Part shown: piece after piece, positions 4,158 through 63,369 of the stretch
Layout: every line of letters starts with the position of its first letter
Numbering within the stretch: the stretch's first letter is position 1
IMG/VR virus record: IMGVR_UViG_3300005518_000002
Coordinates: 17,860-81,859 of that record
DNA from: a virus
Direction: 5' to 3' (one strand)
DNA length: 64,000 nucleotides
The notes under the pieces: generated by a model
Told to the model about the DNA's origin: nothing
Database searches by the model: none
Seen by the model: only the letters and a program-made list of their open reading frames with translations
Translations under genes and position numbers: made by a program

Positions 4158-4661
4158 CTACGTGTTGGAGTAGGTGAACCTTGCCTGCGTCAGCCAGGCA
4201 TCCCCCGCCATCGTGTCGTTGGCGTGCGCCCCGAGACGGCTCAGCTTGATCCAGAGCACGTCCCCATTGGTGATCGAGTCGAGGTTTGTGATGGTGATCG
4301 TTGCTTGCATGATGCGCCGGGCCGTCGTACCCAGATGCGTGTCGTCGACTGTCTGAGCCGTAGCGAAGGCTTTGGTGGTCGCATCCTGCGTGTCAGTCTC
4401 CGGGGTGATTGCAGCAAGCTGCGCCTCCCACCGGACCACGCCGCTGGTGGCCGTGTCGGCAGCCCACTCGATGTCCAGAACCGGGTTGCCGCTGGCGTAC
4501 CCGAACGGGTCGATCACCCAGAACGCAGTCTCCGTTGCAGCAGCGTCGAACTTGAGAACCGGCACCGGGCCGTTCGTACCGTTGATCTTGTCGTACTGCG
4601 GGAACGCGGATCCCAGGTACTGCGCGGATCCGGGATCGAGCATGACGCGCACATTGGCCAT
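4158..4661 (-). CDS. Virion structural protein, beta-rich
   Basis: 167 aa, phage-like codon bias, in structural operon. Confidence 0.6.
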   Translation of the reverse strand: MANVRVMLDPGSAQYLGSAFPQYDKINGTNGPVPVLKFDAAATETAFWVIDPFGYASGNPVLDIEWAADTATSGVVRWEAQLAAITPETDTQDATTKAFATAQTVDDTHLGTTARRIMQATITITNLDSITNGDVLWIKLSRLGAHANDTMAGDAWLTQARFTYSNT

Positions 4662-35218: not shown

Positions 35219-35331
35219 AGGCCGGACAGGACACGACCCCGTGCCCCTGCGCGTGCAGTCCGGGAACCCGGTGCAGCTGCACCGGCTGTGTCTGCGAGGA
35301 GCACCACCCGGAGGAAACCGATGAGCGCTGA
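35215..35331 (+). CDS. 38-aa Cys-rich metallothionein-like peptide
   Basis: MKAGQDTTPCPCACSPGTRCSCTGCVCEEHHPEETDER (GTG start); overlaps both neighbours. Confidence 0.5.
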   Translation: MKAGQDTTPCPCACSPGTRCSCTGCVCEEHHPEETDER

Positions 35332-37978
35332 CATGATCCGCCTGCGCGACTACCAGAACGAGTGCGTGGACAAGGTGATTGCCGCCTGGCTCACCAACAC
35401 CCAGCGTCCGGCCGTCGTGCTCCCGACCGGCTGTCATCGGGCGGGGCAACGCGTTCTCATGTACGACGGCTCCGTCTGCACTGTCGAGAACGTCCGGGCT
35501 GGTGATCGCCTCATGGGTCCTGACAGCACCCCTCGTGAGGTTCTGTCCCTGGCCCGGGGTACCGGACCCATGATGGAGGTCCGGCCGGTCAAAGGACGCC
35601 CCTGGGTGGTCAATGATGAGCACGTGCTGACTCTGGTCCGCACCGCAGCCGGGGGTAAATACCCCTCGGAGCAGGGGGGCGTGATCACCGACGTAGCGCT
35701 GCCGGACTGGTGGCAGTGGGCCCGGTACCGGAAGCACACCCATAAGATCTTCAGGGTGCCGGTCGACTTTCCCGCTCAGCCTGTGCCGGACCTCGATCCG
35801 TATTTTCTCGGAGTAGTGCTCGGAGATGGGTCACTGTCCGTCCGGCACCGGCTGTCGATCGCCACGGCGGACCCGGAGATCACGGAACTGTGCGAGCAGG
35901 TGGCACAGGACCACGGCCGACGGGGCGGGGGCAATCCCCTGGTGACAAAAATCCGTGCACTGGGACTGTGCCCGATCGCATGCGCAGACCGGTTCGTTCC
36001 GGAGATCTACAAACTGGGCAGCCGGAAGGTCCGGCTGGAGACCTTGGCCGGTCTGATCGACTCGGACGGAGCTCTGTCCGGGGACGGATACGACTTCGGA
36101 TCCAAGTCAGAACGGTTGGCCGATGACGTGGCGTTCATGGCCCGGAGTCTCGGGCTGGCTGCGTACGTAACCAAGCGTCCGAGCGGCCATTACCGGGTGT
36201 CGGTCTCCGGGGACTGCACAGTCATCCCGGTGCGGATCAGGCGTAAGAAAGCACCAGCACGGACGGCAGTCAAGGATGTGCTGCGTACGGGATTCGATGT
36301 GATCCCCACGGGCACTGTGGAGCCGTATTACGGGTTCCACCTGGACGGCGACCACCGATACCTCCTGGACGATTTCACGGTGACGCACAACTCGGGCAAG
36401 ACTGTGATCTTCTCCCATCTGGCGGACGACTGGCTCAACCACCGCGGCCGGGGCACCCGCGTCGTGATCCTGGTGCACCGTGATGAGCTGGCCGACCAGG
36501 CGATCCGCAAGCTGCACGACGTCGCACCCCACATGAGCGTCGGCAAGGTCAAAGCGGCGGACAACGACGTCCATGCCGACGTCATGGTCTGCTCCGTGCA
36601 GACCCTGGCCCGCCAGTCCCGTCTGGACCGGCTGATCAGCAGCCAGTACGCGTTCTCTCCCCCGGGAGAACCGGCTCCGCTGGAGCGGCCGATCGGACTG
36701 GTCATCGTGGACGAATGCCATCATGCCGCCGCACCCAGCTACCGCCGGATCATGGAACAGCTGGGCTGCTTCACCCTGGAGCCGGAAAATGCCTACGGCC
36801 ACTGCGCCGGTACCCGGGCGGTAGGCTTCACCGCCACCCTGGCCCGCGGTGACGGGGTGGGGCTGGGCTCCGTGTGGGACAGCGTGGCCTACACCCGCAC
36901 CACCCTGGAGATGATCCGGGACGGCTTCCTGACGGACGTCAAGGGGCGTAACGTCGATCTTGATTTCGACCTGTCGGGGGTCAAGACCTCCGCGGGCGAC
37001 TACCAGGCCAAGTCGCTCGGAGAGGCGATCGTCTCGGCCGACGGTCCGCGCAAGATCGCTGCCGCTGTCCTGGAGTACGCGGAGGACCGGCGCCCGATCG
37101 TCTTCACGCCCGACGTGGCCAGCGCCTATCTCACCGCGGCGGAGCTGGACAAGCTCGGCATCCTGTGTGACGTGGTGGAGGGCAACACCAGCCGCGAGGA
37201 GCGCCAGCTGATCTACAAGAAGTACCGCACCGGGGAATTGCAGGCCGTGGTCAACTGCATGGTGCTGACCGAGGGAGCCGACTTCCCCTGGGCGGACTGC
37301 GCGGTGATCGCCCGTCCGACCAGGAGCGCCCCGCTCTACATTCAGATGGTCGGCCGTGTGCTGCGTCCCTGGCCCGGCAAGTCCGACGCGCTGGTGCTCA
37401 ACGTGATCGGCCAGGGCGGCACCATCTCCACCCTGATCGACCTGGACCCGGGCCTGGTCACCACGCCCCGGCCGGGGGAGTCACTGGCCGACGCCTACAC
37501 CCGGCAGGAGGAACGGGCGGACTCGAAGGTCCCCGCCGGATCACTCGCCTTCGAGCTCAAGTACCGCGACATGGACCTGTTCGCCGCCTCCAGCCAGGCG
37601 TGGCTGCGCACCCCCGGCGGGGTGATGTTCCTCCCCCTCGGACAGGGAGAGGTCTTCCTGTGGCCGGACGCAGAGGGCACCTGGGCGGTGTGCTTCGCCC
37701 CCACTCAGGGTCGCAAGTGGGTCCGCCTGCACCGGGAGCTTCCCCTCGGCCTGGCCATGGCATGGGCGGAAACCGAGGCGGGCGCGGCGGTCTTCGCCCT
37801 GTCGGCCAAGGACAAGCGCTGGCGCAAGGAGAAGGCCGACGCCAAGCAGATCGGCAAGGCCCGCTCGATGGGTATCGACGTCGGGCCCGACCCCCGCAAG
37901 GGGTCAGTGTCAGACGCCATCAGTACAGTGCTCGCGAGCTGGAAGTTCGATGAGCGCGTGAAGAAGGTCCAGGTATGA
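35321..37978 (+). CDS. SF2 DExH helicase interrupted by an intein
   Basis: LRDYQ, PTG|intein|SGKT, DECHH, GFTAT, LTEGADFP, QMVGRVLR. Confidence 0.92.
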   Translation: MSADMIRLRDYQNECVDKVIAAWLTNTQRPAVVLPTGCHRAGQRVLMYDGSVCTVENVRAGDRLMGPDSTPREVLSLARGTGPMMEVRPVKGRPWVVNDEHVLTLVRTAAGGKYPSEQGGVITDVALPDWWQWARYRKHTHKIFRVPVDFPAQPVPDLDPYFLGVVLGDGSLSVRHRLSIATADPEITELCEQVAQDHGRRGGGNPLVTKIRALGLCPIACADRFVPEIYKLGSRKVRLETLAGLIDSDGALSGDGYDFGSKSERLADDVAFMARSLGLAAYVTKRPSGHYRVSVSGDCTVIPVRIRRKKAPARTAVKDVLRTGFDVIPTGTVEPYYGFHLDGDHRYLLDDFTVTHNSGKTVIFSHLADDWLNHRGRGTRVVILVHRDELADQAIRKLHDVAPHMSVGKVKAADNDVHADVMVCSVQTLARQSRLDRLISSQYAFSPPGEPAPLERPIGLVIVDECHHAAAPSYRRIMEQLGCFTLEPENAYGHCAGTRAVGFTATLARGDGVGLGSVWDSVAYTRTTLEMIRDGFLTDVKGRNVDLDFDLSGVKTSAGDYQAKSLGEAIVSADGPRKIAAAVLEYAEDRRPIVFTPDVASAYLTAAELDKLGILCDVVEGNTSREERQLIYKKYRTGELQAVVNCMVLTEGADFPWADCAVIARPTRSAPLYIQMVGRVLRPWPGKSDALVLNVIGQGGTISTLIDLDPGLVTTPRPGESLADAYTRQEERADSKVPAGSLAFELKYRDMDLFAASSQAWLRTPGGVMFLPLGQGEVFLWPDAEGTWAVCFAPTQGRKWVRLHRELPLGLAMAWAETEAGAAVFALSAKDKRWRKEKADAKQIGKARSMGIDVGPDPRKGSVSDAISTVLASWKFDERVKKVQV
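35432..36391 (+). mobile_element. Intein (320 aa) with LAGLIDADG homing endonuclease, in Walker A
   Basis: Starts CHRAGQRVLMYDGS, block B VNDEHVL, LGVVLGDG and LAGLIDSDG, ends VTHN before Ser. Confidence 0.93.
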
Positions 37979-58126: not shown

Positions 58127-58146
58127 TCATCGCTATCCCCCGATAA

Positions 58147-58205
58147 GGCGAAACCGGCGCGAGCCGGTCGGCCGGAGATCACCTCCCGGTCCTGACGAGC
58201 CAGGT
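58147..58205 (+). ncRNA. Type II hammerhead ribozyme
   Basis: GGC-GAAA-CCGGC(GCGA)GCCGG-UC^-GGCCGG..CCGGUC-CUGACGA-GCC; all core nucleotides present; ACCU/AGGU pseudoknot possible. Confidence 0.9.
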
Positions 58206-58231
58206 CAGTCCAACTGAATGACGGAGAGATC

Positions 58232-58740
58232 ATGGACAAGGACATCACCGTCCGGCGGCACTCGGCCGTCCCCGGCCTCAAGGACGTCCACCTGAAGGCC
58301 CAGCCCGCCTACACCTTCACCTACCGCGGAGAAAACTACTCCGCGGCCTACGACCGGCTGAGCGAGATGTGGAGCGTCAGCTGGGTGAGCTCGCCCGACG
58401 GTGCGACGCACCCCATGGCTGTGCGCTCCTCGCTGGAGCAGGCCGTGCGAGACGCCATGAGCGATGTGGACCTGATCGCCCGGCACCTCCCCAAGGTGCC
58501 CCAGACCACGACCCGGGAGAACTGACCATGCGTGACCTGACCGAGCCGGTCGACTGGCAAGTGCTCATCAGTCACCCAGCCTCACGGACTGAGTACCAGG
58601 AGGCCGAGACCAGCAGGGGCACAGTGGCCCGGGTGACCGAGGACGGGCACGAAGTCGTCTCCCCCAGCGGTGACACCGAGCAGGTGCGGCGGCAGTACAA
58701 CGGCCGGGTTCAGGCGTACCTGAAGTCCTACGGTCTGTAA
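58232..58740 (+). CDS. Two small early genes (58232-58525, 58528-58740)
   Basis: RBS-led ORFs. Confidence 0.65.
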
Positions 58741-58804
58741 ATCGCACCACCCGTGAACTGTACTGATCAAAGGCCCTCCACCGGCTACGGTGGAGGGCCC
58801 GCCA

Positions 58805-58875
58805 GCCTCCATGGGGTAATGGATGCCCGCCGGGTTCTCAGCCCGGAGATGCCGGATCGTGACCGGCTGGAGGTA
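58805..58875 (+). tRNA. Atypical tRNA-Glu(CUC)
   Basis: GCCTCCA/TGGAGGT acceptor; D GGGT-AATGGAT-GCCC; AC CCGGG-TTCTCAG-CCCGG; T GCCGG-ATCGTGA-CCGGC. Confidence 0.75.
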
Positions 58876-58916
58876 CGCAGGAACGACCAACTGAACAGGA
58901 CCACAGGGAGATCGCT

Positions 58917-59201
58917 ATGAGCACTGCTGCCAGGCCGACCTGTCTGGAGCTCGCAGTCAACTGGGAGCGCGGCTGGAAGGTCTACGAAGTGACCGGCACC
59001 CGGCACGCGCATTTCCTGCTGAAGAAGCTCGCTGCTCGCGACGGCTTCCTGGGAGCCCGGCTGCGGGATCTGCTGTACGAAAGTGACGGCACGGTGACGA
59101 ACAACGTCCTGATGTTCTCCAGCCAGGACATCCTGTACGGCAGCGAGAAGTTCGGCGCGCTGCTGGACCGGGGCAACAGCAACTATGACCTGGAGCACTG
59201 A
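58917..59201 (+). CDS. Hypothetical protein
   Basis: 94 aa, AGGGAG RBS. Confidence 0.65.
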   Translation: MSTAARPTCLELAVNWERGWKVYEVTGTRHAHFLLKKLAARDGFLGARLRDLLYESDGTVTNNVLMFSSQDILYGSEKFGALLDRGNSNYDLEH

Positions 59202-59206
59202 TCGAC

Positions 59207-59344
59207 CCCTCTGTCCGGATGGAACGGGCCGCGACCGCCTCGGGCGGGGAAGCCGGTCCGGACGGAGGCCATGCCGGGGATATCCAGCGGGTGCTCGCGT
59301 GATCAGCACGCCCCCGGGGGTTCGAGTCCCCCGCCCGGTACGCA
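59207..59344 (+). ncRNA. 12-bp hairpin ending CCA followed by second D-arm-less tRNA-like element
   Basis: CCTCTGTCCGGA/TCCGGACGGAGG-CCA; then GCCGGG.../GGGGG-TTCGAGT-CCCCC-GCCCGGT. Confidence 0.55.
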
Positions 59345-59370
59345 GGAACACAGACCAAGGAGGACCAGCC

Positions 59371-62112
59371 ATGGATGCAAAGGGATTCAAGATCACTAAG
59401 AAGGAGGTCCGGGGACGGGTCCTCGTGACCTGCTCCGAGCACGGGAAGCTCGCGGTTCACGGCGGAGACTTTCCGTGGACGGCCGCACAGGTCACGGAGT
59501 GGACCCACGCCCGCGACGTGCACCGCGTGCCCGTCACCTTGTAACTGTGGACGGCACATGTCCGGCGGGGCGGCACGCCTACCCCGCGACACGCATGGCC
59601 ACGATGAGCGAAGGCAAGCTCCGGTTCTACTGCGGCGGTTGCCGAAGGGACCGGGACGGAGCCCGGAGGGAGCGGGACTACCAGCCGTACGAGCCGGACA
59701 TGGAAGCCGTGAAGCGCGCGGTGTACGGCGATCCCCCCGAGTACCTGCATCCCGCGGAGCGCCGCCTGGCAGCGGAGGAGATCTACGCCGTCCCGCTGCC
59801 GCGCCGCCTCAGTCTCTCCGTATCGGCGCAGCATCTGCGCTGCACTCCCCGGCACGTCAGCTGGCTGTTCAAGAAGATCAAGGAAGCGAAAGAGGGGTAA
59901 TGGTCACTAAGAATCAGGCGCTGAGCGTCAACGACTTCCACTACGGCACCTGTACCCGCGAGACGGGACCCCGTGGCGGCGTGAAGGAGCGCATCGAGCG
60001 CTGGCGTCGCAACGGGTCCACCCAGACCTGGAAGACCCGTCCGCGGGAGTTCCGCCTTCCGGTCAAGTACGGCATGCGCGGCTACAGCGTGATCACTCAG
60101 GACAACGCGTCCGACTTCCACACCGAAGCGGACTGTCCGCTGAATGGAGGCTGATCATGGGTGCCACGTACAGCACGGTCCGCATCAGCCCGGTCCGGGT
60201 GGGCAACGGTCTCTGGAACCGCTGGGACTTCACCCGGGACGGTGCCACTGTCGGTGAGATCACCGAAACGGAGCGAGGCTACGTGGGCAAGCTGTTCGGT
60301 CCCCACGGACCGAACGGCAGGCCCGCGTTCACCGGCTGCGAGCTGCCGTTCCGGCAGTCGGTATTCGACCAGCTGACCAAGCAGGACGAGAAGAGGAGCT
60401 AGCTATGGCAATGGGGCAGGACCAGCGGGAAAAGGCACTGGACAGTCTGCGCGGCTGTTCACCTTTCAGGAGCGCGAACAGTGCCCTGTCGGCCGCGTAC
60501 GGGTGCCAGGGCACAGGAAAGCTGGACCACGAATACAAGGCCGATGCCGAGTCGGCCGGTTACGTGGTCTACAGCTACGAGACGCCTATCGCCTGGATCC
60601 GGCAGGACGGCACGCGGGTCATGCCGTCCGCCCGCTACAGCCAGGTAACGGCTCAGCACAAGGGCATCGTCCGTCAGGCATGGGCGGGGCGTGTGCGCGA
60701 GATCTGATCTCCGCCCGGCTGCACAGCCTCCGGTCTGTGCAGCCTGCGAGGCTGATCAGCCTTGACCACCGAGTGCCAGGAGACCACATGAACAAGATCG
60801 TCCGGCTTCTCTCCACTCTGTTCGGCAGCTGCCCCTCGGGTGGCGATCACCTTCCGGGCACGTCCGGTGAATGGGTCGGCCGCTGTACCAAGTGCGGCAA
60901 CCCCACCAGCTGATGGCAGGGACCAAGCGCCCCGGAGGGCTTCAGCCCAAAGGGCCCTGGGACAACAGGCCGCAGCCTCCGAGCCCCGGCCGTATGCAGT
61001 GACGACACCGCCGCCCGGAGCCTGAGCTCCGGGCGGCCGGGAGGGAAACATGCCAAAGATCGTTCTTCTTCAGCCGTCGGAGTACACCGACCACATCACC
61101 GCCGACGGTACGCAGCTGACCAAGCTGCCGTATCCGGTCGGTGTGCACATGGACGGCTCCGTCACCAATCAGGAGTTCTGGCAGGGCGACCCGTATCGGG
61201 TCATCGGCTTCCAGCGTGACCTTGCCCGGCACGAGATCGACGTGTGGTGGGCCGAGGTCTCCCGTGATCCGCAGAAGGCCGTCGGTCTGTACCTGGTCAC
61301 CGGGGACAGCAAGGGCGGCATGGGCGTGCACCAGACGGCCATCTCCAGCGTTGAGGTTCTGGGATCCGAATGAAGAGGATCCAGATCACGAAGACCAGGC
61401 GGCCGACCGGTCCGCCGGACATCGACACCCGGACGCCGTCCGGCCGACCCCTGCCGTACTGAGGGAGGGGCCGTGCAGACGAAGTTCGAACACGAAGTCG
61501 CGTACCTGATCGGCCGCCGGTATCACGTCTCCATATCGAAGACCGGGGGAGGCACCGTCGGTCGCCGGTACGACGGCGACTGGTCGTACGCGATCAGGAG
61601 CCAGAACTACCGGGGCAAGCTGCTGATGTTCGGCAGCGACCTGTCCACCGGCAATCCGTCAACCCACCGCGAGGCCGCGGAACTCGCGGTCGAGATGTAC
61701 GAGGGGATCTGACCATGAGGATGGCGTACCCCAACCTCACCTGGGAGAAGGCCAGCTGGCCGGACCAGACCTATCAGGCCAGGCTCGGGGAGTGGTCGTT
61801 CACCATTGACTACGTCGGCCCGGAATGGCGCCTGCGCGGCTGGCACTCCAAGGAATTCTCGGCCTGCCGTTATGCCAGGACCGCTGCTGAGCTCCAGCAG
61901 TGGGCCGACGACAACGTTCAGTAAGGATGATCATGGACAAGTGCACGAAGTGCGGCATCGCACACCCGCCCAGTCTCAAGCAGTGCGAGGGCTGTTCCGG
62001 TCCGCTGGAGAGCTACCTGAAGGCATACGAGAACGGCTGTCTGAAGGTGACATGGACCCTGTGCCCCTCGCACTACTCGCAGACGCTCAGCAGTCACCAC
62101 GACGAATACTGA
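59371..62112 (+). CDS. Small early genes (59371-59544, ~59595-59900, 59900-60154, 60157-60402, 60405-60707, 60788-60913, 61050-61373, 61473-61712, 61715-61924, ~61927-62112)
   Basis: Packed co-oriented ORFs with RBS or coupling. Confidence 0.6.
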
Positions 62113-62143
62113 TCAAGCACGACACCCGGCTTGCGCCGGGCCA

Positions 62144-62214
62144 GCCTCCATGGGGTAACGGATGCCCGCCAGGCTTTCAATCTGGAGATGCCGGATCATG
62201 ACCGGCTGGAGGTA
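62144..62214 (+). tRNA. Atypical tRNA-Glu(UUC)
   Basis: Same body as 58805-58875; AC arm CCAGG-CTTTCAA-TCTGG; T-loop ATCATGA. Confidence 0.75.
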
Positions 62215-62248
62215 CGCACCGCAACTGAACAACGACCAAGGAGCTCAC

Positions 62249-63224
62249 ATGAAACACGAAGGCCAGCTCGTCGTACCGGCAGTGAACCGGCTGGAGGTCA
62301 TGCCGTACTGGCCGATGTACGCGGACTGGATCGACCACCTGAACGAGTGTGCCCAGTGCGGCACCGTGATGGTCAGCGGCGATCAAATGATCAGCGGCCT
62401 GTGCCCGGAGGGCCAGACGCGTCAGCAGGATCTCCAGCACGACCTGATGGCTCAGTCGTCAATGGCCGCGCTCAACTGAAGAGGAGAAGTCATGGCAACG
62501 GCAAGCGCAGTGAGCCGGTACCTCGGTCAGACGTTCGCCCGGGCCGAGAGCTGGACGACGCGGGTGAAGGGCTGGCACAACTACAGCTCCGGGTTCGAGG
62601 TCCGGATGATCGGCTACGGAGAGAACCGGGGGAAGGTTCAGGTCGACCACAGCCTCGGGGACCACGGCCACCGGATGACCCCGGAACAGCGGGCGCCGAA
62701 GATCCGGAGCATGATCTCCGAGTACCGACAGAAGCTGGAGATCCGGTATTCGGTGGAGGTCGTCGCCGGGGGCACGCAGCTGATCGTGTCGGACAAGGGG
62801 AAGTCGTGAAGCCGCTGAAGGTAGGTGACCGGGTTGTCGTCACCCCGTCTGCTAAGGGTCCGGTCAAGGGCAGTCGCGGAAAGGTGGTCTCGGTGTATGC
62901 CCACGGCCGTGGCTACGGCGTACTGCTCGACTGGAAGTACGACCACCTCCAGCTGCCGTGCGCGTTCAAGCCGAACGAGATCAGGCCGGAGGACGAGAAG
63001 TCATGAAGACAGGGTTCACCGCAGCGGAGCTCCGCAGGGCACAGTCCGAGGGGGCGAAGATCATGGCGTATGACACTGAGGTGGAGTACAAGCCCTCCCG
63101 GGACCGGGACGTCACGCCCTGGCGGGCTCTCGGCTCCCGGGTACGCTACCGGTCCACAGAATGCCGTCCTGTGGAGCCCCGCGGGGGTGGCCCCTGGGCG
63201 GTGGCCAGGCTCATCAGGTTCTAG
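62249..63224 (+). CDS. Small early genes (62249-62479, 62492-62809, 62806-63006, 63003-63224)
   Basis: RBS-led or overlapping ORFs. Confidence 0.6.
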
Positions 63225-63270: not shown

Positions 63271-63342
63271 GCCCCTGTAGCTCAGCCGGAAGAGCGGCCG
63301 CTTTAAAACCGGCACGCACAGGTTCGAATCCTGTCGGGGGCA
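63271..63342 (+). tRNA. tRNA with UAA anticodon (Leu/bldA-type), short variable loop
   Basis: GCCCCTG/CGGGGGC; GCTC/GAGC; AC GCCGC-TTTAAAA-CCGGC (C.C mismatch at loop base); ACAGG-TTCGAAT-CCTGT; A73. Confidence 0.8.
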
Positions 63343-63369
63343 CTCGATCACGACCAGGGAGGAAAGGTC

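Follow-up and report, generated by a model that had tools for sequence, protein, structure and literature searches.

In this study, we analyzed two tRNA-Glu genes, one with the anticodon CUC and the other with UUC, in a 64,000-nucleotide (nt) stretch of phage DNA, hereafter the window, which comprises bases 17860-81859 of the 81,859-bp IMG/VR record IMGVR_UViG_3300005518_000002. The record has a G+C content of 66% and a 120-bp terminal repeat and derives from an uncultured soil actinophage of the Streptomyces type; its portal protein is ~35-38% identical to the portals of cultured actinophages, the top identity among the matches listed being to that of a Streptomyces phage. Both loci are real phage tRNA-Glu genes, a conclusion that is well supported. 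On balance, they probably encode working, host-derived elongator tRNAs that replace host tRNA-Glu, as members of a phage-specific family descended from the host tRNA-Glu(CUC). That the rewritten elbow of these tRNAs lets them escape a host activity that reads the T-loop is plausible, although unproven. The two genes, their diagnostic parts and the hairpin upstream of each are positioned in the window as follows.

58805-58875, + strand: tRNA-Glu(CUC), 71 nt from G1 to A73, no CCA; ARAGORN call, Rfam RF00005 score of 48.6 bits, family covariation
58837-58839 and 58856-58862, + strand: anticodon and T-loop (ATCGTGA) of tRNA-Glu(CUC)
62144-62214, + strand: tRNA-Glu(UUC), 71 nt from G1 to A73, no CCA; ARAGORN call, Rfam RF00005 score of 49.7 bits, family covariation
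62176-62178 and 62195-62201, + strand: anticodon and T-loop (ATCATGA) of tRNA-Glu(UUC)
58772-58799, + strand: GC hairpin of 12 bp with loop GCUA, ending 5 nt 5' of tRNA-Glu(CUC); fold of -29 kcal/mol
62125-62140, + strand: GC hairpin of 6 bp with loop UUGC, ending 3 nt 5' of tRNA-Glu(UUC); from folding

Two independent detectors identified both genes, which were called by ARAGORN and scored above the RF00005 gathering score of 29 bits. The cloverleaf is the minimum-energy as well as the centroid structure for each of them, with a z of -2.6 for the CUC copy. A preliminary description of this DNA, made from the sequence alone, had reported two 71-nt copies that are nearly identical except in the anticodon arm. 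Alignment confirmed the near identity (63 of 71 positions) and placed six of the eight differences in that arm, but the description had passed over the other two, one in the D-loop (position 16) and one in the T-loop (position 57). Its claim that the changes preserve pairing was borne out, as pair 29-41 is G-C in the CUC copy and A-U in the UUC copy, a compensatory change, and pair 31-39 is G-C in the former and G-U in the latter; the further differences in the arm are at positions 32, 34 and 38. ARAGORN likewise reads the anticodons as CTC and TTC, so that both Glu codons are covered as described. The anticodon loops (TTCTCAG and CTTTCAA) have 7 nt, U33 and A37 in both copies. The determinants of glutamyl-tRNA synthetase (GluRS) in E. 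coli include an augmented D-helix (U13-G22, purine 46) and the absence of nucleotide 47, and both window copies have GluRS-type marks by sequence, namely a YUC anticodon, A37, U13-G22 and a 4-nt variable loop, AGAT. Since all the parts of a decoder are present and the differences between the copies mostly sit where decoding is tuned, the two genes have the appearance of working isoacceptors. Contigs from four soil or rhizosphere metagenomes that align to positions 58600-62400 had 23 variant sites, none of which is in the tRNAs; as chance would place only ~0.9 there, this is not significant.

The inner elbow departs from that of the host tRNA, while much of the remainder does not. Host tRNA genes were taken from three Streptomyces genomes, and 151 Streptomyces genomes were searched with our own model, a tally that takes in one unpublished genome (G144) on which alone no claim rests. 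Host tRNA-Glu(CUC) gave an identical score of 59.1 bits in every match listed; among those matches there are two to three tRNA-Glu(CUC) genes per genome. The host tRNA-Glu(CUC) has the acceptor stem GCCCCCG/CGGGGGT, with G1:U72, the discriminator A73 and no encoded CCA. Because it shows both G1:U72 and the missing CCA, these features, which the preliminary description had counted as non-canonical, are indeed present in the window copies (A73 is followed by C), but are not exotic: they are odd against the E. coli textbook and simply host-like. Also shared with the host gene (e.g., L053:1468-1540) are A73, U13-G22, a 4-nt variable loop and the T-stem 5' strand GCCGG. The window copies are only partly host-like, however, having the acceptor stem GCCTCCA and the pair G11-C24, as opposed to U11-A24 in the host.

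In contrast, the T-loop is ATCRTGA in the phage family and TTCGAAT in the host, such that U54-A58 has become A54/U58 and AU at positions 59-60 has become GA. The Levitt pair 15:48 is A15:U48 in the phage versus G15:C48 in the host, both sides having changed; position 21 is U rather than A; the D-loop has 7 nt rather than 9; the variable loop is AGAT rather than TAGC; and pair 49-65 is G49-C65 rather than G49-U65. The oddity of the T-loop noted in the preliminary description is thus genuine, the D-loop and the variable loop having changed along with it. On the outer face of the elbow, the residues for the contacts G18-U55 and G19-C56, plus purine 57, are kept in the window copies and are invariant in the family, whereas the U54-A58 reverse-Hoogsteen pair is replaced by A54 and U58 in all its intact members. 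In a covariance-model alignment to RF00005, positions 54 and 58-60 have no match to the consensus. The origin of the family is indicated by a member at L052:699-769, in which 40 of the 42 stem positions are the same as in the host tRNA-Glu(CUC) and the acceptor stem, positions 8-13 and the anticodon stem are identical. It departs from the host gene by 13 substitutions and a 2-nt deletion, nearly all of them in loops, namely the D-loop, the variable loop, the T-loop and, as U33C, the anticodon loop. Because the stems match so closely and the changes are nearly all in loops, the family is a captured host tRNA-Glu(CUC) with a rewritten core.

Pattern scans and a covariance model (R1) were used to search for the family, and a total of 16 distinct sequences were identified in 13 IMG/VR phage contigs and four Streptomyces assemblies (S. 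africanus NRRL B-24243, sp. NRRL S-455, sp. NPDC017936 and G016, the last in a tRNA array). The S. africanus and S-455 contigs (92,743 bp, L029/L036, and 95,726 bp, L023/L046, respectively) agree in size and tRNA-locus sequence with two IMG/VR records, one of which carries terminal repeats. Because of this agreement in size and tRNA-locus sequence, we consider each of these two isolate contigs, which look as if they travel with the isolates, to be an entire phage genome, and this would make Streptomyces the host for the family. No family member was found in 50,697 cultured or deposited phage records searched by megablast and blastn with the region and the tRNAs, the sole useful match being a tRNA-His of LR745208.1. 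Standard pairs are formed in all 231 stem cells of 11 members that are intact and distinct, and 10 of the 21 pairs have changed on both sides; none of 500 shuffles equaled this, and slid partners paired at 30-48%. The search for homologs in actinophages that had been proposed did find a family with structural conservation, and the argument from preserved pairing to function is well supported and now extends to that family with strong covariation.

The odd T-loop is confined to Glu tRNAs in these phages, as their tRNAs for Phe, Asn, Leu, Thr, Gln, Trp, Lys and others have TTCRANN. The UUC members (G000/G001, G003 and G008) have a phage-type body rather than that of the host tRNA-Glu(UUC), for which reason the UUC copies must have arisen within phages; all three have A57. 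In the 92-98-kb relatives G002, G007, G009, G010 and G013, tRNA-Glu(CUC) is the sole standard-size tRNA.

There is also variation within the family. Five distinct members have C33 in place of the near-universal U33, in the loops CCCTCAA or CCTTCAC (L012:2918-2988, L029:2921-2991, L032:2188-2258, L052:699-769 and L074:1501-1572), whereas the window copies have U33. At L082:1501-1649, in the dense tRNA array of G016 contig 9, a tRNA-Glu(UUC) whose T-loop is TTCGAGT begins 5 nt after an odd-loop tRNA-Glu(CUC), and the normal loop of this adjacent gene ties the swap in that array to the CUC lineage. In three members, carried on phage contigs from Streptomyces isolates, the anticodon loop is no longer usable and a tighter hairpin has taken its place, with all four stems still paired: at L021:4149-4220 (-) it has given way to a perfect hairpin of 7 bp and a 4-nt loop, at L023:5522-5590 (+) it has 5 nt, and at L075:1501-1570 (+) it is unusable and the D-loop GG and T-loop motif have also been lost. 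The changes in L021 and L023 make the hairpin more perfect, which looks like template-switch 'correction' of a near-palindrome, so that the clustered changes may go back to only one or two events. Decoding is thus dispensable in some lineages, as would be expected of an accessory gene.

The window genes are probably transcribed within a long co-directional operon of small genes. RNase P and 3' processing would free the tRNAs from this transcript, so that the message upstream would presumably end in a protective hairpin, and completion of the tRNAs would then fall to the CCA-adding enzyme of the host. With the helices and the expected GluRS marks kept (YUC/A37, U13-G22/purine 46, the 4-nt variable loop and G1:U72/A73) and the inner elbow rewritten, these tRNAs probably sustain the decoding of GAG and GAA in infection independently of host tRNA-Glu, the UUC copy having been derived inside the phage lineage from the phage-type body. 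As the most likely reason for the rewrite, the phage copies may have escaped recognition by a factor for which the T-loop of the host tRNA is the mark; candidates are a tRNA-directed defence or toxin and the TrmI/A58 and U54 modification enzymes. The host encodes a TrmI-family (m1A58) methyltransferase, and its target base is absent from the phage tRNAs. By analogy with other phage tRNAs, we infer that host tRNA-Glu may be attacked and that the elbow may confer resistance. The nuclease-resistant replacement suggested in the preliminary description fits the data, although neither a nuclease nor another agent was identified. A more specific proposal, that an orthogonal tRNA-Glu escapes a Streptomyces activity that disables the genus-wide invariant tRNA-Glu(CUC) via its T-/D-loop corner, would explain why the 92-98-kb phages carry this one standard tRNA only; we hold it tentatively, as it is rather doubtful at present.

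Several points weigh against reading the window genes as replacements with a protective elbow. A look for RNA sequencing runs that contain this DNA returned none. An agent that acts on Streptomyces tRNA-Glu was not found in the literature searched, and to our knowledge none has been described. The G11-C24 pair of the window copies departs from the host U11-A24, which in E. coli is a GluRS determinant. The L021, L023 and L075 copies show that the element can persist without decoding. In addition, the invariance of the T-arm is largely due to the search pattern having demanded it. However, the UUC tRNA of G008, which was found by the covariance model, has a different T-stem (ACCGG/CCGGT), yet has the T-loop ATCATGA, and in a scan that specified the D-arm only, every real tRNA recovered keeps ATCRTGA and none combines that D-arm with a normal T-loop; chance matches inside other sequence made up eight of the 11 genome matches and 11 of the 12 new D-arm pattern matches. 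Lastly, universal conservation has been described for U54 and A58, the eukaryotic initiator with its A54 being the known exception (PMC7912444), and the near-universality of the two residues is a point against this reading.

The surroundings of the two genes bear on the alternatives. ARAGORN identified seven tRNA(-like) genes in the phage, all on the + strand and clustered across the ends of the record amid a run of small genes, and each has a ribosome-binding site and then a small gene downstream. All seven have a similar GC hairpin, which ends 2-8 nt upstream of the gene, and nearly all family members in other phages are also preceded by one. The GC hairpin just upstream of both tRNA-Glu genes had been described correctly, but since it precedes all seven genes it is a matter of operon design and not a tRNA-Glu feature. 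Neither a sigma-70-like promoter nor a U-tailed terminator was found on the + strand at 57-64 kb, in a scan that takes in only some promoter types. Twenty-eight (28) phage proteins, those of all the small genes beside the tRNAs among them, were scanned against Pfam and PHROGs, and no tRNA enzyme, nuclease or synthetase was identified. Two further features lie in the vicinity of the tRNA-Glu genes.

58146-58209, + strand: match to the type II hammerhead ribozyme, 39.3 bits versus a cut-off of 37 bits in Rfam
59252-59341, + strand: doubtful 'tRNA-Ala(AGC)' of 90 nt between the two Glu genes, called by ARAGORN only

The hammerhead match, which is barely over the cut-off, belongs to the same operon and precedes the first tRNA-Glu by ~600 nt. 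The 'tRNA-Ala(AGC)' found no support, as it has no Rfam match at E<=1, its fold has a z of +0.56 and its only other occurrence is in G001, a phage that is nearly identical; its T-arm is good and the T-loop normal (TTCGAGT), but its acceptor, D and anticodon stems are mismatched. A 73-nt 'tRNA-Leu(UAA)' at 63271-63343 (+) is without the long variable arm of bacterial tRNA-Leu, and its D- and T-arms match the tRNA-Phe(GAA) of the same phage, so that it looks to be a Phe-type body with U34; a comparable short UAA tRNA is present in G003. Other tRNA-like genes of 92-99 nt have normal acceptor, D and T arms and a much extended anticodon arm (L112:4331-4422, which corresponds to G000 bases 4331-4422 outside the window, L002:5767-5865 and L023:1203-1299). 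In the 92-98-kb Streptomyces phages, the extended-arm element, with an encoded CCA, is the sole RF00005 match besides tRNA-Glu(CUC). Elsewhere in the window, at 35288-37978 (+), a helicase (ResIII/Helicase_C) is split by an intein that carries Hint and LAGLIDADG homing-endonuclease domains.

Plain codon supplementation, above all for GAA, with the odd T-loop a neutral, tolerated variant fixed by descent, is an unlikely explanation overall, although it has some merit for one of the two genes. The phage has 1002 GAG and 322 GAA codons among 22,390 (5.9%), and the GAA share of its Glu codons is 24% (322/1324), compared to ~10% in sampled Streptomyces loci and 14% in relatives with only the CUC gene. 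The host has only one type of tRNA-Glu(UUC) and two to three CUC copies, and the high GAA share is in line with the UUC copy serving to supply decoding capacity. For the CUC gene, however, supply is no explanation: the founding and commonest member of the family reads GAG, the host-preferred Glu codon that is served by the two to three host CUC genes, and yet is the only standard tRNA in several phages, which is the reason we disfavor supplementation for it. Moreover, in small samples of G003, G008 and G002 the share of GAA shows no clear trend with whether a UUC copy is present, and a T-loop that stays constant while the stems covary is unlike neutral drift. A second alternative, that RNA-processing punctuation is the main function, with RNase P or RNase Z cutting a long early transcript to give hairpin-capped 3' ends and decoding being secondary, would account for the hairpins 5' and the ribosome-binding sites and small genes 3' of every tRNA(-like) gene. 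It is also in keeping with the hammerhead ribozyme match in the operon, the failure to find a promoter or terminator of the types scanned for, and the retention of stems in the three relatives with unusable anticodon loops. We nevertheless consider it quite unlikely, as it leaves unexplained both the Glu-only T-loop and the host tRNA-Glu-like body, and the window copies have perfect 7-nt loops, U33, A37, both Glu anticodons and tuned stems. With the tRNA genes embedded in a long co-directional operon, RNase P would in addition cleave the message directly after the stable hairpin, and we treat this cut as an unavoidable side effect of any operon-embedded tRNA, not as its purpose.

The preliminary description had also raised decoys and non-ribosomal Glu donors, neither of which found support in the window copies. 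As a decoy for a host tRNA-binding factor, or as a donor of Glu for DNA hypermodification, heme or a peptide natural product, the element would gain from the existence of the anticodon-less relatives L021, L023 and L075, which do have a tRNA shape without decoding, and Glu-tRNA is a non-ribosomal substrate for GluTR and LanB-type dehydratases. However, the window copies have intact, tuned anticodon arms covering both codons, which neither role needs. No tRNA-dependent transferase, GluRS or similar protein was identified near the tRNAs or among the 28 proteins scanned, and the amino-acid:DNA transferases known to us use free amino acids. These roles are therefore very unlikely, and it is the anticodon-less copies that still give punctuation and decoys some probability, a low one. 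The possibility that the genes are decaying relics, either captured host tRNA genes turning into pseudogenes or an attP fragment, was already disfavored and is barely credible: although three relatives have degenerate copies and the 'Ala' call between the genes looks relic-like, every stem cell pairs across the 11 members, with 10 compensated pairs, and G18, G19, U55, C56 and R57 are all kept. An attP core in particular was rejected, since the phage sequence is not identical to the 3' part of the host tRNA (the T-loop and position 65 differ) and consists of a whole gene in two copies. The interpretation that remains probable is that the window genes encode replacement tRNAs for host tRNA-Glu.

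If the escape proposal were correct, tRNA-Glu(CUC) would be the target of an undiscovered anti-phage system whose battleground is the elbow and not the anticodon loop. In any case, the host and phage tRNA-Glu(CUC) form a clean pair, with a named ancestor, untouched stems and changes nearly all in the elbow, that could be used to test an A54/U58 T-loop in translation and to fish for a Streptomyces factor that reads the corner. The closest parallels are phage-encoded tRNAs that take the place of host tRNAs when defence nucleases destroy these (PMC11464382, PMC12409363, PMC10264068, bioRxiv 10.64898/2026.07.10.737580), through which phage tRNAs are now known to counter tRNA-cutting immunity. Examples are the tRNA-Lys of T5 against PARIS (PMC11464382, PMC12409363), the tRNA-Thr of Bas32 against OLD (bioRxiv 10.64898/2026.07.10.737580) and the tRNAs of mycobacteriophage C1 with anticodon-loop changes (PMC10264068). 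The Glu family resembles these in being a phage copy of a host isoacceptor with a few conserved positions changed and a codon that is already well served, and some of its members also have U33C in the anticodon loop. The resemblance is drawn because the CUC tRNA reads such a codon and yet is the sole standard tRNA of its phages. It differs from them in that the published cases are altered in the anticodon loop or stem and their nuclease is known, whereas the changes of the Glu family are in the elbow and are known from sequence alone.

The swapped T-loop itself is not unique to the family. In LR745208.1, a 485-kb uncultured phage (L111, L125-L154), ATCGT.. T-loops are found in three of 35 tRNAs (His, Ile and Thr(GGU)), the Gln(UUG) T-loop is ATCGATA and the tRNA-His body is 77.6% like the Glu family over 58 nt. 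There the swap is scattered over several identities in a large tRNA array, whereas here it is limited to Glu, often in the sole tRNA. The literature search returned no published A54-U58 tRNA and no tRNA-Glu-directed toxin in actinomycetes. The T-loop of the eukaryotic initiator tRNA-Met shares A54, A60, U55, C56 and G57 with the phage family, but keeps A58 in an A54-A58 purine pair and is not that of an elongator, whereas the phage family has U58 and G59 (PMC7912444); this resemblance is one of sequence only and implies no relation. In comparison to all these systems, what this case adds is the combination of a nameable host ancestor, a swap limited to one identity, linked changes in 15:48, position 21 and D-loop length, and phages for which this is the single tRNA.

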